In this document: positions 20,418 to 46,912 of the stretch, one piece after another | Layout of the letters: each line of letters starts with the position of its first letter | Position numbering within the stretch: position 1 is the first letter of the stretch | Source of the DNA: a virus | Taxonomy: Duplodnaviria > Heunggongvirae > Uroviricota > Caudoviricetes | Virus record (IMG/VR): IMGVR_UViG_3300029305_005988 | Location: 59,096-123,095 of that record | DNA: 64,000 nucleotides | Reading direction: 5' to 3' (one strand) | Program-made: the position numbers and the translations under genes | Notes under the pieces: model-generated | Database searches by the model: none | What the model saw: the letters and a program-made list of their open reading frames with translations, nothing else | What the model was told of the DNA's origin: nothing

Positions 20418-20425
20418 TTCATATA

Positions 20426-20498
20426 GGGAATTAGTTTAACAGTAGAATGACTGTCTCCAAAACAGTAGGCTGCGGGGCAGCACCGTAATTCCCTGCCA
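20426..20498 (+). ncRNA. degenerate tRNA-like (Trp CCA-type anticodon arm, no canonical T-arm)
   Basis: acceptor gggaatt/aattccc 7/7, stem actgt/acagt, loop ctccaaa; T-region replaced by ctgcggggcag. Confidence 0.3.
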
Positions 20499-23075: not shown

Positions 23076-23201
23076 GGAGTGGTAGCCCAACAGGCAGAGG
23101 CAATGGACTTGTCTGATGTTCGGTAACCTAGACTGGGTCAGCACCAGTATCAGGCACCAAAAATCCATCAAGTGAGGGTTCGAATCCCTCTCACTCTACC
23201 A
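23076..23201 (+). ncRNA. 126-nt tRNA-like gene with 55-nt insertion in anticodon loop
   Basis: acceptor ggagtgg/tcactct, D-arm gccc..ggc, anticodon stem atgga/tccat enclosing 55 nt, T-arm gaggg/ttcgaat/ccctc, CCA; own upstream promoter. Confidence 0.4.
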
Positions 23202-23713: not shown

Positions 23714-23864
23714 CTTACCCGTGAGTAGTGGGGCTCTCGGCATCGCCAGTAAATAGCTACTCAAACTCCCAACGGTAGAGCAAATGACCAGAACTAGGAG
23801 TTAAAATAAACGAGACTAAGGATGTGCGGCTGACAACCTACTGTCATTACATATGCGAGTTTAG

Positions 23865-23939
23865 TTCAGAAGTAGAATACCGCTCTGATAAAGCGGGGGT
23901 GCTTGGGGCAGTACCAAGAATTCGCACCAAAACTCAAGA
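23865..23939 (+). tRNA. tRNA-Ile(GAT) with non-canonical T-loop ggcagta
   Basis: stem ccgct/agcgg loop ctgataa; acceptor gcgagtt/aattcgc; CCA. Confidence 0.55.
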
Positions 23940-26199: not shown

Positions 26200-26275
26200 G
26201 CTGTGATAATTCAATTGGGAGAAGAGCCGGCGTCAAGCAGGCTAGTTGTGGGTTCGAGTCCCACTCACAGGTCCA
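26200..26275 (+). tRNA. tRNA with UCA-centred anticodon loop (cgTCAag, G33) - opal-reading/Sec-like candidate or mis-parse
   Basis: acceptor 6/7 (G1-G72 mismatch); T-arm gtggg/ttcgagt/cccac; CCA; anticodon stem gccgg/caggc with one mismatch. Confidence 0.3.
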
Positions 26276-27440: not shown

Positions 27441-27582
27441 ATTAAAAATTTATGATATAATAATATTGTAATAATGAGAAAGGAAATAAAAATAAAAAGA
27501 AATGAGAAATGTAAAGCGAAAATTTAGAGCCTTGGAGAATTAATCCATCTAAGGTATTTAAAACATAGATGGGTTTTAATAT

Positions 27583-27656
27583 GAGCCCGTCATATAATGG
27601 TAGTATTTGCGACTTTTAATCGCACCGTCGGAGTTCGACTCTCCGCGGGCTCACCA
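27583..27656 (+). tRNA. tRNA-Lys(TTT)
   Basis: acceptor gagcccg/cgggctc; loop cttttaa; T-arm cggag/ttcgact/ctccg; CCA; own promoter. Confidence 0.65.
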
Positions 27657-27812
27657 TAAAGAATTTAATTGATTTCTTAAAAAATTTATGATATAATAAA
27701 TATGTAAGATAAAGGCGATGCAATATAAGTAGCGAGAAACAAAGACACTCGCCGCTTCCATCAACAAATTCTCGATTCAAAATTGCTCGAAAGAGGTCGC
27801 TAATCGTAATAT

Positions 27813-27888
27813 TGGGTCTTCGCCTAAACGGTTAGGGCACAGGACTTTGACTCCTGCAGTCTAGGTTCGAATCCTAGAGACCCAGCCA
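27813..27888 (+). tRNA. tRNA-Gln(TTG)
   Basis: U1:A72, G73, tc-gcc D-arm (Gln-like); stem cagga/tcctg loop ctttgac; CCA. Confidence 0.6.
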
Positions 27889-27923
27889 AATATTGGAGGT
27901 TAGCCTAGTGGTCAGGCAGTCGG

Positions 27924-28392
27924 CTGTTTTAACTGACTTTAATCTTTAATGAAAAAAGATAGTGAACAGTAAGCAAATTGGCAATATTACCGAAGTATCT
28001 GTTATGCTTGAGTTTTTAAAATTAGGATATAATATTTTAACTCCTTATGGAGATTGCGAACGATATGATTTTGTTGCAGATATTAATCATAAATTTTATA
28101 AAATTCAAGTAAAAACAGCAAAAAAAGATAATGGTAAAATCGAATTTAATACAGCATCCACTCATTATGTAGATGGAAAATGTATTCATGACTCTTATAC
28201 AAAAGATGAAATTGATTACATTGCAACTTATTTTAATAATAAGTGTTATTTAATTCCAATTGAGGAATGTGGAAAGCGCTCTGCTTCAATTCGTTTTGAA
28301 GCTCCTAAAAATGGACAAACCAGAGGAGTTCGAATGGCAGAAGATTATGAGTTGGAGGAAGTAATTAAAAGATTAAACTGATGTTAAAGCAA
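27924..28392 (+). mobile_element. intervening element in tRNA anticodon loop (group I intron-like or novel) encoding PD-(D/E)XK-like nuclease
   Basis: only ~40 nt 5' and ~11 nt 3' of non-ORF sequence, too little for a canonical group I core. Confidence 0.4.
27962..28381 (+). CDS. putative PD-(D/E)XK-fold homing endonuclease (139 aa), paralog of 30291-30905
   Basis: GDCERYDFVADIN...KIQVK motif block conserved with paralog (GEDCRYDMIVDIN...RVQVK); lies inside split tRNA. Confidence 0.45.
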   Translation: MNSKQIGNITEVSVMLEFLKLGYNILTPYGDCERYDFVADINHKFYKIQVKTAKKDNGKIEFNTASTHYVDGKCIHDSYTKDEIDYIATYFNNKCYLIPIEECGKRSASIRFEAPKNGQTRGVRMAEDYELEEVIKRLN

Positions 28393-28653
28393 CCGACCTA
28401 CGGGAGTTCAATCCTCTCACTTCCAGCCAGTCGATTATCGACAAAAACCGTTATCATGAATTTGGCAGTTAAACTACCACCGACTCTAACAATTAGCACC
28501 CAGTATGCGGTCAAGTATTGAATATGAGGTATGTGGCTTAGTGGGAAACGGTATATCAAAGACGCAAAGTAAACTGCCGCTTGGATGATTTTTTCATGGT
28601 TTTCCTCCCTTCAACGGGTTTGGGCATTACCGTTAAAACAATGCCTTTAGAAT

Positions 28654-28730
28654 GTCAGTCTAGCCCAATTGGCAGAGGCACTAGTCTTAGGAACTAGTTA
28701 GTGTGGGTTCGACTCCCTCGATTGACACCA
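28654..28730 (+). tRNA. class I (short variable arm) tRNA with anticodon TAG (Leu codon CUA) - atypical
   Basis: stem ctagt/actag loop cttagga; acceptor gtcagtc/gattgac; T-arm ~gtggg/ttcgact/ccctc; CCA. Confidence 0.45.
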
Positions 28731-29419
28731 TGGATGCTACTTCCAAGCCGTAAGGTGAATGTAGCGGTTTTTACGATGAGGTTTTGACGGTTTTTCCAAG
28801 AGTCGTAATCCCCATAATATAATTATTAAAATAAATCGGCAACTCTTGGGTGTTGATGTACAAGTAGCACCATCAACCTCTCCTATGCGTTCCGTATATA
28901 AAGACTCGGAAGAGGTAACAGAGCGTAGGTGACTATACGGTATCAAGAGGCGGAATCCGTACGCGCGACGAGGCATGATGCGAAAAATCAAAAAGGTGGC
29001 AGCCTGCTCGAGAATATATGGTATTATAAATTTAATCGGTATCAATGTGGAAAGACACTGCCAAAGGTTGACAACCATTATGAGTTGTTGAAACAGAGAT
29101 ACTCGATATAAGTAAATAATCTTGATTACATTAAGTAGTTTGAGGCGATTACTACTGTGAAATGCAGAGTAGGCTTGAGAGAGCGCTCACGAACAAGAAT
29201 TGAAATCAAATGCTGAGAAGATCGTGGATTTCGTCCATCCGAAGCACAGAGTAGGATGCGATTAGCGACGAGGATGTGGTGAGGTTCTGGTAGACCAACC
29301 AATGGTGTCTAAGTCAGATGTAGATTGAAAGATGTAACGGTTATTTACTCGAATTGTGGAAGGTAGCAAATACCCGATGCCCAAAAGAAGAAGATATGCG
29401 GTTAGCTGACCTAAAGCTT

Positions 29420-30176: not shown

Positions 30177-30228
30177 CTATATTTTCTTATGCAATTAAGT
30201 TGAACTTTTTAATATGCACCTGTCGCAT

Positions 30229-30919
30229 AGTGGCCGATTGCACTCGCCTTGTTCGTAAATTTAAGACTTCCTATAAAGGAGGTTGATATAATGAATGAGA
30301 CAAAGATTAAAGGTTTAACCACTGAGCTTCAATGTCAATTATTCTTTACTCAATTGGGTTATAATGTTAGTATCCCGTTAGGAGAAGATTGTAGATATGA
30401 TATGATAGTAGATATTAATGGCATACTCTTGCGAGTTCAAGTAAAACACGCAACTGTTGCAGAAAATGGTATTACTATTTCTACTCGTTCTACTCAATCT
30501 AACACTTCAGGATCAAAAAGTTTAACCTATAATAAGGAACAAATTGATTATTTTGCAACTTTTTATAATAACCAGTGTTATTTAATTAAAGTTGAAGAAT
30601 GTTCAACTCAAAAAACTTTAGCTTTTACTAAAATTCAACAAATGCAGAACTTCATTGATGATTTTTTGGCTGAAAAAGAAATTCAAAGAATCTTAAATGG
30701 GGAAGATGCTATAGAAGATACTGTAATAGCAAATGTATATCAATATGATTTGCGTGGCAACTTAATAGGAGCCTATTCAAGTGCCGTTGCAGCAGCTGAA
30801 AGTTTAGGAGATCGCTCTAAAAATTCTCATATTACCAAATGCCTTAATGGGCATAGGCAAACAGCATATGGGTATAAATGGAGCAGGACACTATTGAAGT
30901 CTTAAACATTATGATCAAA
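30229..30919 (+). mobile_element. intervening element in tRNA anticodon loop encoding nuclease ORF
   Basis: no G at predicted 3' splice position, so a group I assignment is doubtful. Confidence 0.35.
30291..30905 (+). CDS. putative PD-(D/E)XK-fold homing endonuclease with C-terminal DNA-binding tail (GYKW), paralog of 27962-28381
   Basis: conserved block with paralog; RBS ataaaggaggttgatataatg. Confidence 0.45.
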   Translation: MNETKIKGLTTELQCQLFFTQLGYNVSIPLGEDCRYDMIVDINGILLRVQVKHATVAENGITISTRSTQSNTSGSKSLTYNKEQIDYFATFYNNQCYLIKVEECSTQKTLAFTKIQQMQNFIDDFLAEKEIQRILNGEDAIEDTVIANVYQYDLRGNLIGAYSSAVAAAESLGDRSKNSHITKCLNGHRQTAYGYKWSRTLLKS

Positions 30920-31505
30920 GCGAGAGACCTTGTCCGCGTTGGTTCGAATCCAACTAGGTGCTCCATGGCGTCAAGAAGAAAACCTGCGCGTGGTGACGCT
31001 GCACGCTCTTACCCAGTGGCTAATTTCTTCATGCATCACCTCCTTTCGATGCAAAAAGGCGGCGCACGCCTGTAAGTCCCCAAGCTATCTTGGCTAAAGT
31101 GTTGCGGGGAGCATACCCTGACAAACCTCTGTGGCTGGGTTATAAGCTCGGAAAATAGACACTTCTCCATTTAGTGAGAAACCGTTAGTGTCACTAAGCG
31201 AGGGTGGCGGGAAAAACCTTCGCTTCTTCCCATTTAAACTTGATATACGACAGGTGAAGTCGATAAAACTGCCTTGGTAGGGTAGCGCCCTACGGAAGAG
31301 ACGATAGAGCGCAAGAGGGCGTCCCAAGATTATCAAGTACAATTTATATTAGCTTAAGAGAGCCTTTGTCCCAAACACAGCGCTCCGTCAAAAGAAACCG
31401 TTTAGCACGGACTCGCAAGAGATAGTACTCGGTAGGGTTGGGAAAAGCGTGGATACAATTAGCTACTCCACGGGAAATTTCAATTGACAATCTTAAGCGC
31501 CTTCT

Positions 31506-42220: not shown

Positions 42221-42319
42221 TGGGGGGTCGCTTAATGGTCATAGCAGCGGTCTCTAAAACCGCCAGAGCCTACGGGTCTGCTCCGTAGTATGTGGGTTCG
42301 AGTCCCACCCCCCCAGCCA
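42221..42319 (+). tRNA. amber-suppressor tRNA(CUA), Gln-type identity, with 28-nt extra (variable) arm
   Basis: stem gcggt/accgc loop ctCTAaa; U1:A72, G73, tc-gct D-arm as in tRNA-Gln; variable arm ctacgg-gtctgct-ccgtag hairpin; T-arm gtggg/ttcgagt/cccac; CCA. Confidence 0.6.
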
Positions 42320-43049: not shown

Positions 43050-43901
43050 ATGACTTATACTCTAAAAAATGGTGAGACTATTGAATCTATACCAATTGGA
43101 CGTTCCTCTGTGATTATAGGAGAAAAAAGTCCAAGTGGAATGCTAACAGTTTGTGATCGAGGCCCTGCTCCTATTAGCGGGAGAGGCGCCACCGTAATCT
43201 GTCAATGCTAGTGCGGAAAATATACTCTTATTAAATTAAATGAGTTGCGAACAGGTAATACTAAATCTTGTGGTTGTTATGCACAAGAAAAAGCAAAAGA
43301 AAATGGTAAATATGTAGGCTCTTTACCTAAAAAAGCAAAAGATTATACACTTATAGATAATCCTTTTTATACTTTTATTCAAAGAACAGATAAAAAAGAT
43401 ATTTCAAATAGTTTCTTTTGGATAGTACAGTGTAAAAGATGCGGCAAACAATATGAAGAAGTGCCTTCTCAAATTATTTCTACCACTCGAGCACGAGGCA
43501 ATAATCCTTGTAGTTGTTGGAAACATTTAAGTAAAGGAGAGCAAAAGATCATAAATCTGCTTTTAAATAACAATATTTCCTTTTCACAACAAGTGACTTT
43601 TAAAGATTGCCTTTCTCCACTAGGGAACCCTTTAAAATTTGATTTTTTTATTGAACAAAAGTATTTAATTGAATTTGATGGTGAGTAGCATTTTTTACCT
43701 CAACAATTTGGAAATAACGAATCTGGAGAAGAAAAATTAAAGCTTACTCAAGAATACGATGCAATTAAAAACCAATGGTGTAAAAATAATGGAATTCCGC
43801 TAATAAGAATTCCTTATACTCATTACAGTCAATTAAATATTAAAGATTTATTATTAGAAACAAGTAATTTTATATTAAAGGAGAAAATAAATGCCGAATA
43901 A
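43050..43901 (+). CDS. Zn-finger + Vsr/DUF559-like (PD-(D/E)XK) endonuclease, HEG-like; 2 in-frame TAG (43209, 43686)
   Basis: RBS aaaaggagatgaataaaaatg; ...VICQC*CGKY...KFDFFIEQKYLIEFDGE*HFLPQQFGN...; ORF 43245-43688 is the middle segment. Confidence 0.5.
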
Positions 43902-45171
43902 AATTTATAATGAAGATAGTACGCAACATATATCTCCTCGAGAGTTTACACGAAAAAGACCTGGTACCTATTGTGGTTCAACCGAGTATAGCACACAGCT
44001 TATTCGAGAGCTATTCGCCAATGCTTTAGATGAACACAATATAGGCCATGGTAATGTAATTTCAATCGAGGCTGATACAAAAAAGAACTTGTATACGGTT
44101 ACAGACTTAGGACAAGGCTTTATCCCTGGCGCGCCAAGAGAAAATGGGGAAACAATGTTTTCAGAATGTTTCTCGGTTATTAATACTTCAGGCAAGTATG
44201 ATGATGCTGATGATTCGATCTATGGTGGAAGTGCTCTAGGACTCAATGGTATAGGCATGAAGTTAGTCTGTTACCTTTCAAGCTGGTCTCAAGCTACAAC
44301 AACCAATGGCAGCGGCAAGAGAGAAACAATTACCTATAAAGATGGTTTGTTTGAATCGCGTCAAATTACCGACGAAAAGAAAGATATTCACGGTACAACA
44401 ATTAGTTATCAACCAGATCCTCAATTCTTCCAGCATCAAGAAGCAAACTTTGACGAGTTGAGAAAGATGTTTACCGACATCGCCGCACTTTGCCCCATGC
44501 TTACTATTGAACTTACTGTTGACGGAAAAAAAGAAATATTCCACTCTTCAAGAGGTTTAAATGACTTGATTGATGCAAAAGTTGGTGATAATGAAATTCT
44601 TTCAAATCGTTTTATTGCGCGTAGAGAGTCGGGCGCAGATCTCTTTGATATTTGCTTAACTTATACTTCTAATTATTCAGAAGATGTAACGGGTTATGTT
44701 AATTTTGGTTTAACTGAAAGCGGCGTTCATATGACGGCTTTGAGAACTAATTTAACAAGACTAATTAATAAATTTGCGAATGATAAAAAGATGTTTAAAG
44801 CAGGAGAGTCAAATCTTACTGGACAGGAGCTCTCTGAAGGACTTGTAATTATTTTCAATCTTAAAGCAAAAAAGGTTGCTTATGATAGCCAGTCAAAAGT
44901 AAGAGTTGTTGACATTGATAAGACATTGATTAATCAGACTCTAAGTGAAGACTTTGCTCAATGGCTTGAGTCTAATCAAAAGGATGTTAAAATTATTATT
45001 GACAAAGCGCTAAGTGCTCGTAGAGCAAGAGAGGCTGCTAAAAAGGCGCGCGACGCGGCTCGAGGCGACAAAAAGAAAAAGGAAAAGGCGCTTAAGTTTG
45101 ACTCTAAACTAGCAGATTGTTATTCAAAGGTTCGCGCCAACTGTGAGATCTATGTAACTGAGGGTAAGTGA
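43891..45171 (+). CDS. gyrB: DNA gyrase/topo II subunit B, exon 1 (GHKL ATPase + transducer), ends inside TOPRIM motif
   Basis: GHKL ATPase motifs; ...CEIYVTEG then K-stop from intron. Confidence 0.8.
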   Translation: MPNKIYNEDSTQHISPREFTRKRPGTYCGSTEYSTQLIRELFANALDEHNIGHGNVISIEADTKKNLYTVTDLGQGFIPGAPRENGETMFSECFSVINTSGKYDDADDSIYGGSALGLNGIGMKLVCYLSSWSQATTTNGSGKRETITYKDGLFESRQITDEKKDIHGTTISYQPDPQFFQHQEANFDELRKMFTDIAALCPMLTIELTVDGKKEIFHSSRGLNDLIDAKVGDNEILSNRFIARRESGADLFDICLTYTSNYSEDVTGYVNFGLTESGVHMTALRTNLTRLINKFANDKKMFKAGESNLTGQELSEGLVIIFNLKAKKVAYDSQSKVRVVDIDKTLINQTLSEDFAQWLESNQKDVKIIIDKALSARRAREAAKKARDAARGDKKKKEKALKFDSKLADCYSKVRANCEIYVTEGK

Positions 45172-46273
45172 AAACTATTGCCCGAATCCTTTTTACCATT
45201 AATCAGTGGGGTCACAATTATTGTGGCTAACGGGGAAAGCTGACCATTACACAGATATGTCAAAATCTGTTTAGGTGAAGTCAATCCCGTGGCAAAATTT
45301 TAAAATTTTTAGGTCAAATCTTGATAAATTTCTTACTCTCACTTTCATATATAAATAGAAGGAGACAGAGTACTTCTAATATATTTGAAATAAGGAGAAT
45401 AATAATGATTGGAATTTACAAGTACACAAACAAAATTAATGGGAAACACTATATTGGATAGAGCATTAATTTAGAAATGCGCAAATATGCACATAAATCT
45501 TCTGCTTTTAATGAAAATGCTAAAGATTATAATGCTCAATTTCATCAAGCAATTCGTAAATACGGTTGGGATAATTTTGATTATGAAGTAATCGCAGAGT
45601 TAACCCCAGAAGAATATACGAAAGAAGGACTTGATGCCTTAGAAAGATATTTTATTAAATATTACGACTCTTTTCATAATGGCTATAATGCCACCGAAGG
45701 CGGAGATGATAATCCACTTAGGGCGCAAAAAGGCTCTGCCAATGGGCGTGCGCTTTTAACAGAAGAGGATGTTATTTATATTAGAGAATGTTATAATGCA
45801 CATATTCCTTTTAGAGAGGTTTATGCAGAGTATCAAGATAAAATATCTAAAAGAGGGCTTCAAAAAGTATGGTGGTTTGATACATGGAAAGATATCTATC
45901 CAGAGTATCATACAGAAGAAAATAAAAAATGGCATGCTACAAAAGCAAAAGCTAATGCTTCAGAGGTTGCCGCAAATAATAAACGCAGTTTTACCGAAGA
46001 AGAAGTTAAAAAAATGAGAGAAGAGTACGACAATGGAATGTCACCAAAGCAAATTTGGCTAAGATATGCACCAGAGAAAGCTTGGTCGACAGTTTATAAT
46101 GTTGTAACAAGACAGACCTATAAAGATATTTAAAATAAGCTGTATCGACTATCCCGAGTGAGATCGGGAGTAGAAATGTTATTGATACGCATTTCGAAAT
46201 AGAGGACACGATGATGACCTGACAAGTCGGAGTGAAGAGATAGTCAGTGCCTATAGAAATATAGGAGCACATG
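45166..46273 (+). mobile_element. group I-like intron in gyrB carrying GIY-YIG HEG
   Basis: 5' exon ends ggT, intron ends atG; splice restores YVTEG|DSASGN = TOPRIM EGDSA motif; candidate P1 pairing gggu/gccc. Confidence 0.55.
45405..46133 (+). CDS. intron-encoded GIY-YIG homing endonuclease with in-frame TAG at 45459
   Basis: MIGIYKYTNKINGKHYIG*SINLEMRKYAH...GYNATEGG; ORF 45477-46133 is its body. Confidence 0.7.
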
Positions 46274-46912
46274 GATAGTGCGTCTGGAAACCTTAAGTCA
46301 GCTCGAAACAATGAGTTCCAGGCTGTAATGCCAGTTCGAGGTAAAATCCTTAATTGTCAAAAGAATACGCTGGATAAGATCCAAAAGAACGCAGAGATTA
46401 TGACTATGATTGAGGCATTTGGTCTTAAAGCAGACCCTAAGACGATGAAACTTACCTATGACAAAGACTCACTGCGTTATGGCAAGATTATTATAGCTGC
46501 TGATGGAGATGCTGATGGTAGCCATATTCGAAACCTGTTTTATACTTTTATCTGGAACTTCTGTCCGCAACTTATTCAAGAGGGATATGTGTATGCTCTT
46601 GTAGCGCCGCTCTATAAGATTACGATGGGTAAAGATACTTATCTATATTTAAGAGACGATAAAGAATTGGCTGAGTTCCAAGAGAAAAATAGAGGAAAAA
46701 AGTATCAGGTCAATAGATTTAAGGGATTAGGTGAAATGTCAGAGGACGAGACTGAAATTCTTGTAGACCCAGGCTTAAGAGTGCTAAATCAGGTTGCGGT
46801 TGAAGAAGCAAAGAAAGCAGATGTCTTATTTGATCAATTGATGGGCGTTGGGGTTGCAGCGAGAAAGAAGTTTATTCAGGATCATAGCAAGGAGGCTAAA
46901 TATGGAGTATAA
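46271..46912 (+). CDS. gyrB: DNA gyrase/topo II subunit B, exon 2 (TOPRIM + tail)
   Basis: DSASGN...PVRGKILNCQKNT...IIIAADGDADGSHIRNL ~ GyrB EGDSAGGS...PLKGKILNVEKAR...IMTDADVDGSHI. Confidence 0.75.
   Translation: MDSASGNLKSARNNEFQAVMPVRGKILNCQKNTLDKIQKNAEIMTMIEAFGLKADPKTMKLTYDKDSLRYGKIIIAADGDADGSHIRNLFYTFIWNFCPQLIQEGYVYALVAPLYKITMGKDTYLYLRDDKELAEFQEKNRGKKYQVNRFKGLGEMSEDETEILVDPGLRVLNQVAVEEAKKADVLFDQLMGVGVAARKKFIQDHSKEAKYGV

Follow-up and report, generated by a model that had tools for sequence, protein, structure and literature searches.

A hairpin that covaries with the anticodon surrounds homing endonuclease genes in split phage tRNA genes and suggests a mobile intron spliced by proteins

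The DNA analysed here (the window) is a 64,000-nt stretch of phage sequence, and all features described lie on its plus strand. A single tRNA gene at positions 27894-28429 is interrupted by a 462-nt insert (27929-28390). The 5′ exon (27894-27928), TGGAGGT-TA-GCCT-AGTGGTC-AGGC-A-GTCGG-CTGTT, comprises the 5′ strand of the acceptor stem, the D arm, the 5′ strand of the anticodon stem (GTCGG, 27919-27923) and nucleotides C32, U33, G34, U35 and U36 (27924-27928). The 3′ exon (28391-28429), AA-CCGAC-CTAC-GGGAG-TTCAATC-CTCTC-ACTTCCA-G-CCA, carries A37 and A38, the stem strand CCGAC, the variable loop, the T arm, the 3′ strand of the acceptor stem, G73 and an encoded CCA (28427-28429). Across the insert, the acceptor stem forms 7 of 7 pairs and the anticodon stem 5 of 5, as the initial annotation had claimed, although one acceptor pair is a G.U wobble; the T stem is also complete (5/5, one G.U). 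The joined halves pass ARAGORN as a 74-nt tRNA. With introns permitted, the program calls a tRNA at 27894-28429 with an intron of 462 nt, and without this option it reports zero tRNA at the locus. The claim that a tRNA gene is split in its anticodon loop by the ORF of a PD-(D/E)XK nuclease is thus borne out. Since the arrangement recurs in dozens of independent loci, it is far beyond chance.

The split gene encodes tRNA-Asn(GUU). The joint of the insert reads CTGTT|...AAGC|AA, so that it lies between nucleotides 36 and 37 of the tRNA and leaves the anticodon GUU. This boundary was chosen because it is the sole join that gives CUGUUAA and because the same rule is common to the whole family of loci described below. 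The initial annotation had instead proposed a splice at ctgt|...ag|caa, giving an Asp-GUC loop. ARAGORN, whose default intron boundary is the U...G rule of group I introns, also labels the split gene Asp when the intron option is on. This Asp reading (35/36, U...G rule) was rejected on the identity of the tRNA body and on the family-wide 36/37 rule. The joined tRNA has 65/75 identities to uninterrupted phage tRNA-Asn genes, compared with 50/80 to the window's own tRNA-Asp, and of the 8 uninterrupted matches that GGCAGTCGGCTGTYAACCGACC has in viral contigs, every one shows T and is thus Asn. No second tRNA-Asn was found within the 64-kb window. Other phages have intron-less tRNA-Asn genes with an identical anticodon arm; a search for an intron-less allele of exactly the window's tRNA-Asn returned none, and a synteny comparison showed that the tRNA arrays differ between the window and the phages with an uninterrupted tRNA-Asn. 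No close relative was found in the phage GenBank collection.

The insert contains an ORF of 139 aa with a GTG start (27962-28381). The sequence left non-coding is 33 nt on its 5′ side and 9 nt on its 3′ side, and not about 40 and 11 nt as first estimated. The protein matches Pfam PF11645 (PDDEXK_5) with 122.5 bits (cut-off 26.1) over residues 1-131, and the structure of I-Ssp6803I (PDB 2OST) with an E-value of 1e-6. The catalytic E...D...QxK motif is present, and its residues E11, D36, Q49 and K51 are invariant in 12 relatives. Judged by these matches, the protein is a PD-(D/E)XK homing endonuclease of the I-Ssp6803I family. Several related nuclease ORFs, found in TAG-recoded phages, hold in-frame TAG codons. 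This points to a long residence of the nuclease genes, during which the tRNA halves have stayed intact.

The ends of the insert and the anticodon loop can be folded into a hairpin. Its first helix, helix A, pairs U33, the anticodon GUU and intron nucleotides +1 to +5 (UUAAC), together 27925-27933, with positions 28383-28391, which consist of GUUAA, the anticodon complement AGC (with a U35.G wobble) and A37. Both exon-intron junctions lie inside this one continuous helix, with 3 bp between them. An internal loop follows, with UGAC on its 5′ side (27934-27937) and CUGAU on its 3′ side (28378-28382); the UGA stop codon of the ORF (28379-28381) sits inside the latter. Helix B is formed by UUUAAUCUUU (27938-27947), in the 5′ UTR, and AAAGAUUAAA (28368-28377), in the last codons of the ORF. 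On the 5′ side, the gap between helices A and B is only 4 nt. The predicted fold of the full window pre-tRNA consists of the cloverleaf arms plus helices A and B, with a minimum free energy of -127.7 kcal/mol (z = -3.69). A second split tRNA in the window, with a long variable arm (30216-30965), follows the same hairpin plan, its helix B being UUUAAGACUUC / GAAGUCUUAAA. It is split by the gene of a 218-aa PF11645+NUMOD1 endonuclease (ORF 30249-30905).

At least 39 non-redundant phage tRNA genes, for Asn, Lys, Ile, Thr, Ala and Val, share this plan. They were collected by applying the 36/37 rule systematically and checking each spliced product with ARAGORN; insertion at 36/37 is the only position that yields a sensible tRNA in every isotype. 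Nucleotide 36 is U or C and forms a Watson-Crick pair with position -3 at the 3′ end of the intron. The last intron base is C in Asn and Ile and A in Thr, Val, Ala and Lys, and the G of group I introns is absent. In a set of 25 loci delimited using ARAGORN alone, the helix A pairs 33:37, 34:-1, 35:-2, 36:-3 and +1:-4 are formed in 24-25 loci, and these pairs are more constant than those deeper in the helix. The end of the insert changes together with the anticodon (GUU/AGC or AAC, GAU/AUC, UGU/ACA, UAC/GUA, UGC/GCA or GUA). The Lys(UUU) class has AAA ends, and in it the +1:-4 pair also changes from U-A to C-G or A-U. Nucleases that are 55-58% identical occupy either GUU or GAU tRNAs, with AGC or AUC insert ends respectively. 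Over 24 loci, the paired share of the cells is 93.6%; shuffling lowers it to 60.5% and sliding the partners to about 40%. In the same loci the covariation score is 0.858 versus 0.206, a value reached by none of 500 shuffles, and changes on both sides occur in 13 of the 15 pairs. The hairpin and its covariation extend over at least 39 loci and at least six anticodons.

Helix B has a different sequence at every locus and is complementary within each. Cognate arms reach a median duplex energy of -12.0 kcal/mol and non-cognate arms one of -6.1 kcal/mol; the cognate arm ranks first or second in 18/24 cases. The internal loop of the Asn class has the motifs YUGAC (5′ side) and YUGAUG(U) (3′ side); YUGAC opposite YUGAUG permits tandem G.A pairs plus U.U and G-C pairs, and by inspection this loop may be of a box D-like or tandem G.A type. 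A kink-turn of the box C/D kind has a canonical stem, a 3-nt bulge, tandem sheared G.A pairs and a non-canonical stem; the Asn-class loop has 1 + 2 nt where that motif has 0 + 3, and the other classes carry AAA(C) / (G)CAUU in its place. The sequence of the internal loop thus varies between classes and defines no universal recognition motif. The six pairs nearest the junctions contain 30 G.U and 2 A.C, which assigns the structure to the sense strand, i.e. to RNA. Moreover, copies inserted in tRNA genes have a median end-pairing energy of -25.7 (shuffled -13.4), whereas nuclease relatives for which no split tRNA was scored have a median of -13.8 (shuffled -15.0). The hairpin is therefore specific to the tRNA-inserted copies.

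A cassette of RNA repair genes (37636-39942) is present in the window, 9 kb downstream of the split tRNA-Asn. It encodes an RNA ligase of the Naegleria/Deinococcus Rnl5 type, with an N-terminal OB domain and an adenylyltransferase domain (37636-38814), a P-loop protein resembling polynucleotide 5′-kinases (38916-39383), whose best PDB matches are the kinase domain of C. thermocellum Pnkp and T4 Pnk, and a calcineurin-like metallophosphoesterase (39376-39942). The ligase is a candidate for joining the exons, and the kinase-like protein and the phosphoesterase are candidates for healing the ends. A contig of 4952 bp with a Val-type intron also carries this ligase, 2.6 kb downstream of the intron, and homologues of the phosphoesterase turn up in 13 of the 79 flanks examined around related loci; the repair cassette is present in only a minority of the ±10 kb flanks. 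The ligase family is 140-fold enriched in tRNA-rich gut phages, with a role that is not known (PMC10879173). A defence against the anticodon nucleases of the host, as in T4, would account for such a cassette just as well. No candidate splicing endonuclease was found among the window ORFs or among the gene families common to the flanks of the 79 loci, which are homing endonucleases, the phosphoesterase, the kinase, a DUF2828/DUF7788 protein, a Clp protease and unknowns. The EndA/Sen family (PF01974) had no match among about 49 window ORFs and the commonest flank families, the small ORFs being partly scanned. To our knowledge, no bacterial or phage enzyme cuts an RNA helix with a 3-nt stagger; RNase III leaves 2-nt overhangs.

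The sequence features probably describe a mobile hairpin intron that is excised by a protein endonuclease and whose exons are rejoined by an RNA ligase. The gene of the I-Ssp6803I family would have been placed between nucleotides 36 and 37 by a double-strand cut that its nuclease made in the anticodon region of an allele without intron. The transcript carries no ribozyme core. Its short insert ends prolong the anticodon stem into a long irregular hairpin, in which U33 pairs with A37, the anticodon with the last three bases of the insert, and +1 to +5 with -4 to -8. Beyond helix A come the internal loop and then helix B, which closes off the ORF as a large loop. In this hairpin the junctions face one another across a single helix, offset by 3 bp with 3′ overhangs, and both sites would be cut by a protein endonuclease; this geometry would suit a dimeric, structure-specific enzyme. 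After excision, the tRNA halves would be held together by the tRNA body and the nick in the anticodon loop would be sealed by an RNA ligase, the phage kinase, phosphoesterase and Rnl5-type ligase genes being the obvious candidates for this step. Excision and ligation, the cut positions and the acting enzymes are what we infer.

The main rival explanation, which corresponds to the HEG-disrupted pseudo-tRNA of the initial annotation, is a dead tRNA: a dispensable phage tRNA gene was invaded by the homing nuclease gene, and its transcript always retains the insert. The hairpin would then serve the nuclease gene alone, for instance through paired 5′ and 3′ ends that stabilise its mRNA or release it from a polycistronic tRNA transcript, and the halves would look intact since the insertions are recent or renewed by repeated homing. 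Phage tRNAs are indeed often dispensable, splicing machinery for such a structure is not known in bacteria, and a second copy of the same anticodon is present in 3 of 26 loci. Decayed copies also exist (L028, L060 and L061), and an ORF-less derivative of the Asn-class hairpin was searched for in metagenomes and not found. However, a helix that stabilises an mRNA need not involve the anticodon, nor peak in conservation at both junctions, and the relatives outside split tRNAs manage without the hairpin. In 23 of the 26 regions surveyed, including arrays of 27 and 31 tRNAs, no second gene with the same anticodon accompanies the split one. The three decayed copies indicate that decay is visible when it happens, and the in-frame TAG codons argue for long residence with the exons still intact. 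We consider a dead tRNA unlikely. Repeated homing into intact alleles could, however, preserve the intact look of the halves without functional selection.

In the boldest version of the hairpin intron, the homing endonuclease may make the RNA cuts itself, acting on the RNA helix at the positions of its DNA cuts and leaving 5′-phosphate and 3′-OH ends ready for the ligase. The nuclease is the only protein that always accompanies the element. The exon side of the RNA helix (27-36 paired with the anti-anticodon, A37, A38 and 39-43) is a copy of the left half of the DNA target, the bottom-strand cut site expected there being part of it, and the cuts would be two-fold symmetric about the middle of the anticodon. 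I-Ssp6803I is said, after Bonocora and Shub in 2001 and Zhao et al. in 2007, to be a tetramer whose cuts leave 3-nt 3′ overhangs. The PD-(D/E)XK fold is also common to tRNA splicing endonucleases (PMC3424549). However, the insert ends are unlike the right half of the target, with 1.6-1.9 identities out of 7, a value equal to that of non-cognate pairs. The insert ends were also rejected as mimics of the whole DNA target, the resemblance of the window's TTAACTGAC to AACCGAC not being general. The nuclease family alignment contains no invariant histidine, so that an EndA-like Tyr-His-Lys site in the 139-aa protein was rejected as well. Cleavage of this kind would make the kinase and the phosphoesterase unnecessary, and cutting of A-form double-stranded RNA is not known to us from any PD-(D/E)XK restriction-type enzyme. 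On balance, splicing by the intron's own nuclease appears improbable.

A novel small self-cleaving ribozyme, built from the ~42 non-coding nucleotides with the ORF in a peripheral loop and followed by ligation, is very hard to sustain. The conserved loop motifs of the Asn class (YUGAC / YUGAUG) would be compatible with it, small ribozymes tolerate large loop insertions, and HDV-like ribozymes adjoin tRNAs in these phages (PMC10879173). However, both junctions lie in regular helix, which is unfavourable to in-line attack, the loop motif gives way to AAA(C) / (G)CAUU outside the Asn class, and neither RF02682, another HDV-family model nor any other Rfam ribozyme matched within the inserts. An HDV-like fold with the ORF in P4 was rejected: the lengths fit, but such a fold needs a P1 from nt +1 to an internal segment upstream of P4 as well as P3/L3, and the 4 nt between helices A and B leave no room for P1 and P3. 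A hammerhead, considered from the CUGAUG motif, was also rejected, as there is no GAAA/three-stem context and no Rfam match and the motif is absent in the other classes.

The option that the ORF overlaps the catalytic core of a group I intron, which the initial annotation had left standing, deserves even less credence. Known PF11645 nucleases live in group I introns of tRNA-fMet and tRNA-Arg (PMC13011429), Patescibacteria have group I introns at 35/36 of tRNA-Asn/Asp, and the Asn class happens to permit a U...G reading (CUGU|...AAG|CAA). That reading would, however, put an Asp anticodon on an Asn body. Other isotypes have 5′ exons ending in C and inserts ending in A or C, and 5′ exons ending in U or C combined with inserts ending in C or A contradict the group I boundary rule. 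The Pfam domain fills the ORF, and only 42 nt of the sequence are non-coding. Covariance-model searches with Intron_gpI (RF00028) and other ribozyme models gave no match at E ≤ 10 in positions 27500-28800 or at E ≤ 1 in 19 related loci, and none at the Rfam gathering score in the whole window. Nor was a hidden RNA core detected inside the ORF, since across 25 ORFs every 10-codon window gives a same-codon fraction at synonymous sites of 0.46-0.73, a flat profile without a strongly conserved stretch. A core overlapping the ORF was rejected on the absence of an Rfam match, of a U...G rule and of a conserved stretch, and on the 33 + 9 nt of non-coding sequence. The earlier view that a group I core has no room here, and that this is another kind of intervening element, stands.

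An element that acts at the DNA level without an RNA role is barely conceivable, whether pictured as a transposon-like cassette bounded by terminal inverted repeats or as a cruciform or hairpin that a resolvase-like nuclease would cut: helices A and B do form imperfect inverted repeats at the insert ends and the nuclease fold is near that of Holliday-junction resolvases (PMC3384342), but given the 30 G.U against 2 A.C near the junctions only the sense strand can form the structure, the repeat enters the exon (anticodon) on one side only, and a 420-bp spacer makes cruciform extrusion implausible. Transposon repeats, a cruciform and a target-site duplication were all rejected on this asymmetry and on the absence of direct repeats.

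As far as we know, the tRNA introns of bacteria and phages are regarded as self-splicing ribozymes of group I or, rarely, group II, and tRNA splicing by proteins as a trait of archaea and eukaryotes. According to a 2014 review, the phage introns then known were all in protein genes (PMC3984707). A literature search turned up no account of such a hairpin element. If the hairpin intron is spliced, phage-infected bacteria possess a protein-based tRNA splicing pathway and a structure-specific endoribonuclease awaits discovery. For phage RNA ligase and Pnk-type genes, splicing would mean a housekeeping function besides the repair of defence damage, and the tRNA annotation of phage genomes would miss whole isoacceptors. 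Joining by an Rnl5/DRB0094-type ligase with kinase and phosphoesterase would, if true, explain the enrichment of the ligase in tRNA-rich gut phages. The system is small (about 540 nt of RNA and one ORF), and the covariation dictates compensatory mutants.

The cyanobacterial tRNA-fMet group I intron (I-Ssp6803I) and the tRNA-Arg introns share with the present loci the nuclease family PF11645 (PDB 2OST), the site in the tRNA anticodon loop and presumably the DNA homing logic. Group I introns bearing PF11645 nucleases are longer than 500 nt, with a ribozyme core of ~200 nt and the U...G boundary rule (PMC13011429), whereas here the non-coding sequence amounts to 42 nt with no core, the boundaries are U/C ... 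C/A, and it is the 3′ end of the insert, not an internal guide, that pairs with the exon. The intervening sequences that RNase III excises from bacterial 23S rRNA likewise combine an end-formed helix in a stable RNA gene with a double-strand-specific nuclease. However, their fragments are functional unjoined, which a tRNA nicked in the anticodon loop would not be, their overhangs are of 2 rather than 3 nt, and they contain no ORF. The heal-and-seal chemistry of T4 Pnkp/Rnl1 and bacterial Pnkp-type repair matches the kinase, phosphoesterase and ligase genes of the window, and the proposed final step, the sealing of an anticodon-loop nick, is alike. In T4 it is a defence nuclease of the host that breaks an intron-less tRNA, whereas here a role of these genes in splicing is what we infer.

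Archaeal bulge-helix-bulge introns with homing genes (for example those for I-DmoI, I-PorI and I-ApeI, in rRNA or tRNA) are likewise mobile and without a ribozyme, and their ORF is likewise looped out from a helix of the intron ends. In archaeal pre-tRNAs the anticodon region is also paired to the intron, as it is here in 24-25 of 25 loci, with covariation, and a protein endonuclease plus a ligase is the working model in both systems. The bulge-helix-bulge has a 4-bp helix flanked by two 3-nt bulges, one on each strand, and each bulge holds a splice site. A canonical motif of this type was rejected for the phage loci, where bulges are absent and U33-A37 and +1:-4 are paired in 25/25 loci; a continuous helix with 3 bp between the sites takes the place of the 3-nt bulges and 4-bp central helix. 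Moreover, the insertion lies at 36/37 rather than at the archaeal 37/38, the nuclease is of the PD-(D/E)XK and not the LAGLIDADG type, the host is a bacteriophage, and no EndA homologue was seen among the scanned ORFs. It is a serious possibility, which we stop somewhat short of calling probable, that with these elements the bacterial world has its first class of mobile introns that are processed by proteins and do not splice themselves. They would then be a phage counterpart of the archaeal endonuclease-bearing introns, with a recognition structure of their own, in which the anticodon pairs with the 3′ end of the intron within an uninterrupted helix and the cuts are staggered by 3 bp.

The two tRNA halves reported at 27894-28429 in the initial annotation are present and pair as described there. 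Once joined they form a 74-nt tRNA accepted by ARAGORN, which, with introns allowed, also finds the split gene with an insert of 462 nt. The focal stretch is 100% identical to two ENA metagenome contigs, which rules out an assembly accident. The window is a tRNA-rich part of a large phage-like genome, with 24 tRNAs by ARAGORN and more by Rfam, and also encodes gyrase, a sigma-70 factor, NAD-dependent DNA ligase, DnaB, RecJ and several homing endonucleases. Two tRNAs found with the Rfam model were missed by ARAGORN (20425-20495, 44.8 bits; 23855-23926, 44.7 bits).

The insert carries a 139-aa ORF with a GTG start (27962-28381), a full-length PF11645 member (Pfam) homologous to I-Ssp6803I (PDB 2OST), the PD-(D/E)XK homing endonuclease from the cyanobacterial tRNA-fMet intron. 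The PD-(D/E)XK-like character assigned to this ORF from sequence alone is thus borne out. Residues E11, D36, Q49 and K51 are invariant in 12 relatives. The non-coding flanks are short, as had been noted, amounting to 33 nt upstream of the ORF and 9 nt downstream of its stop rather than about 40 and 11 nt. A 7-codon out-of-frame ORF (ATGAAAAAAGATAGTGAACAGTAA) at 27949-27972 overlaps the GTG start. In relatives an upstream ATG is in frame, e.g. ATGAAAAAGATAATGAAT (MKKIMNSKQ) in the related locus L042, and the A-run before the nuclease has one extra A in the window. Owing to this extra A, the focal nuclease either uses GTG as its start codon, depends on slippage or has begun to decay.

Joining CTGT to CAA, as first proposed and as ARAGORN does by default, gives tRNA-Asp. 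Three lines of evidence show this to be wrong: the tRNA is Asn, with the insert between nucleotides 36 and 37. When viral contigs were searched with the anticodon arm, allowing T or C at position 36, eight uninterrupted genes matched, and each is a tRNA-Asn with CTGTTAA. The joined focal tRNA is identical at 65/75 positions to uninterrupted tRNA-Asn genes, versus 50/80 for the window's tRNA-Asp, whose separate presence was correctly reported. ARAGORN called no second tRNA-Asn within the window. Since CUGUUAA can be obtained from one join only (CTGTT/...AAGC/AA), the insert spans 27929-28390.

This insert is not a group I intron. The covariance-model search recommended at the outset returned no group I or other ribozyme family at the focal locus at E≤10; ribozyme families gave no match at E≤1 in 19 related loci and none at gathering score across the whole window. 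A group I core overlapped by the ORF, one option originally considered, is likewise not seen. The PF11645 domain spans residues 1-131 of the 139, and the fraction of identical residues encoded by the same codon is 0.46-0.73 in each 10-codon window of 25 related ORFs, a profile in which no conserved RNA hidden in the ORF is visible. Across the family, 5′ exons end in U or C and inserts in C or A, which contradicts the U...G rule of a group I-style join at 35/36. What stands is the other option, an intervening element of another kind with no room for a group I core.

Protein-guided scans gathered about 95 loci with a gene related to that of the nuclease, mostly from 80-190 kb tRNA-rich viral contigs and in a few cases from Bacillota, Clostridia, Ruminococcus and Bacteroidales MAG contigs. 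Intron-allowed ARAGORN, followed by an independent search checking every spliced product, yielded a non-redundant set of 39 split tRNAs, whose inserts measure 432-490 nt. The largest classes by ARAGORN call are Asn(GUU) with 17 members, Lys(UUU) with 5, Ile(GAU) with 3, Thr(UGU) and Ala(UGC) with 2 each and Val(UAC) with 1; two more Ile(GAU) loci (L025, L032) were identified by hand. The remaining loci are single calls, some AU-rich ones having a register ambiguity of 1-2 nt. In all classes the insertion point is between nucleotides 36 and 37, and the 3′ exon usually starts with AA (AC in two Ile loci). Three copies are decayed or fragmentary: L060 (~1440-1960) lies between two other tRNAs and retains of its own tRNA just an anticodon-arm fragment (CTGC TTTGT/...ACA/AA GCAG) around the nuclease, L028 is mutated in the 5′ anticodon arm and T loop, and L061 lacks a recognisable 3′ half.

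The insert ends continue the anticodon stem as a hairpin (helix A). Pairs were counted in 25 loci whose boundaries had been set independently of pairing, numbering from the first (+1) and last (-1) insert nucleotides. U33-A37, 35:-2, 36:-3 and +1:-4 are paired in 25/25 loci, 34:-1 and +3:-6 in 24/25, and +2:-5 in 23/25. The insert ends covary with the anticodon (GUU:AGC/AAC, GAU:AUC, UGU:ACA, UAC:GUA, UGC:GCA/GUA); in the Lys(UUU) loci the insert ends in AAA and +1:-4 is C-G or A-U, not U-A. Paired cells make up 93.6% of a gap-free alignment of 24 loci, compared with 60.5% after shuffling and about 40% with slid partners. The covariation score of 0.858 (versus 0.206) was reached by 0/500 shuffles, and 13/15 pairs have two-sided changes. 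Helix A is followed by an internal loop, which is YUGAC opposite YUGAUG(U) in the Asn class and roughly AAA(C) opposite (G)CAUU in the others, and then helix B, in which 6-16 bp join the 5′ UTR to the last codons of the ORF. Helix B is locus-specific in sequence and complementary within each locus (UUUAAUCUUU / AAAGAUUAAA in the window, CUGAGAGUUUUGAU / AUCAAAACUCUUAG in the related locus L023), with a median duplex energy of -12.0 kcal/mol for cognate and -6.1 for non-cognate arms. Folding of the whole 536-nt focal transcript recovers the acceptor, D, anticodon and T arms together with helices A and B (MFE -127.7 kcal/mol, z = -3.69). End-pairing of tRNA-inserted copies is -25.7 versus -13.4 for shuffled sequences, and nuclease relatives not scored as within a split tRNA have none above shuffled (-13.8 versus -15.0). 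The junction-proximal pairs include 30 G.U and just 2 A.C; the structure therefore belongs to the sense strand, i.e. to RNA.

We read the hairpin as defining the cut sites, since its most constant pairs are those closest to the junctions. Both junctions lie on one helix, the 5′ junction after pair 36:-3 and the 3′ junction after -1, the partner of nucleotide 34. The three base pairs separating them are the anticodon and its complement, with a two-fold axis through nucleotide 35 and 3-nt 3′ overhangs. Such a geometry would be expected of a dimeric nuclease that acts across the minor groove. Other cutters were considered: RNase III leaves 2-nt overhangs versus 3 nt here, BHB cleavage needs bulges and does not match the geometry, and no ribozyme could be fitted to it.

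After excision, the exons could be joined by the products of three adjacent RNA repair genes 9 kb downstream of the focal locus: an RNA ligase closest, among solved structures, to the Naegleria nick-sealing ligase (E 3e-26; T4 Rnl2 also matches), a polynucleotide-kinase-like protein best matching the C. thermocellum Pnkp kinase domain and T4 Pnk, and a calcineurin-type phosphoesterase. The same ligase is encoded 2.6 kb downstream of a Val-type intron (4952-bp contig) and near the family loci L153 and L180; the phosphoesterase occurs in 13/79 and the kinase in 6/79 related flanks (±10 kb). This ligase family is 140-fold enriched in gut phages with HDV-like ribozymes flanking tRNAs, where its role is unclear (PMC10879173; 2024). 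The repair genes may be tied to splicing; defence against host anticodon nucleases, as in T4, would account for them equally well.

A hairpin intron processed by proteins is the best explanation of the focal locus, and we consider it reasonably probable. The main rival, a dead tRNA that is never spliced, seems unlikely. In 23/26 regions, including arrays of 27 and 31 tRNAs, no other tRNA gene has the anticodon of the split one. In-frame TAG codons in the nuclease ORF of several related phages (L002, L004, L013, L014) indicate that these are stop-codon-recoded, and in TAG-recoded phages with such codons the tRNA halves are still intact. Decay is detectable when it happens, since visibly decayed copies exist. 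These observations fit selection for a working tRNA and do not prove it. The window tRNA at 26200-26275 (anticodon UCA, called SeC) is probably an opal suppressor, and a 99-nt tRNA at 42221-42319 is assigned either a 4-base anticodon or CUA plus a 23-nt insert.

For the cutting step of a protein-processed intron, no EndA-like or other obvious RNA endonuclease was found among about 49 ORFs of the window or among the families common to the 79 related flanks. The intron's own nuclease is an attractive candidate: it always accompanies the element, it shares a fold superfamily with tRNA splicing endonucleases (PMC3424549), and the part of the RNA helix made of exon sequence unavoidably repeats the left half of the nuclease's DNA target. 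That it cuts the RNA is nevertheless quite improbable: the right half of the target is not mimicked by the insert ends, the EndA-type His is absent, and we know of no case of double-stranded RNA cutting by an enzyme of this type. The commonest non-endonuclease neighbour, in 24/79 flanks, is a 503-aa DUF2828 + DUF7788 protein (e.g. L174 12496-14008), and several arrays have weak Y-RNA-like (YrlA) matches, a hint of an RNA quality-control module.

A second split tRNA in the window (30216-30965; 85 nt joined, long variable arm) contains a 218-aa PF11645 + NUMOD1 nuclease (ORF 30249-30905) with a strong Shine-Dalgarno sequence. Its hairpin has the same layout, in which helix B is TTTAAGACTTC / GAAGTCTTAAA and 36:-3 is a U.U mismatch. 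Where the exons join is ambiguous, since 36/37 would give UGU, 35/36 Ser-UGA and 34/35 UCA. The tRNA at 23076-23201 (Rfam tRNA model, 43.7 bits with a 52-nt insertion) has a 49-nt ORF-less anticodon-loop insert (23111-23159), with counterparts in L015 (1324-1459), L018 (10241-10376), L020 (9207-9342) and L153 (8901-9036). This insert, with the conserved motif GGG(G/U)CAGCACCA, forms a 7-9 bp stem from G+1 with a free ACCA tail and resembles a tRNA acceptor minihelix. Other phage tRNAs (L144, L145, L154, L180, L183) have looser inserts of 31-57 nt, of the form hairpin + CAGCAA. The short ORF-less inserts matched no Rfam family and may represent a second type of phage tRNA intron outside group I.

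ROOL RNA genes adjoin split tRNAs in four loci (L059 828-1420, L044 2430-3016, L107 2177-2609, L041 3111-3426), and RAGATH-33 occurs in one related locus (L053 209-337). A sub-threshold HDV-like (F. prausnitzii / theta-type) ribozyme match in L026 (1973-2040; 38.4 bits, E 0.0014) begins exactly at the 3′ end of the split tRNA. Elsewhere in the window, GyrB is split over two ORFs, N-terminal (43891-45171) and Toprim/C-terminal (46271-46912), between which lies a 218-aa ORF without Pfam matches (45477-46133); either gene fracture or a further insertion of an unconventional kind may explain this arrangement. Unusually for a phage, the window also encodes an 829-aa protein (32561-35050) carrying major-vault-protein shoulder and Vault_3 repeat domains.

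Literature searches found no published description of the hairpin element. The pipeline published for finding interrupted tRNAs in bacteria depends on a group I model match and would therefore miss it, and according to a review all phage introns known by 2014 were in protein genes (PMC3984707). Conservatively, the element is a tRNA intervening sequence that bears an endonuclease; were splicing to be confirmed, its mechanism would have no precedent in the bacterial world. With archaeal endonuclease-bearing introns it shares the lack of a ribozyme, an ORF looped from a terminal helix and anticodon:intron pairing, and with the bacterial group I tRNA intron its type of nuclease, yet by their defining tests it belongs to neither family.
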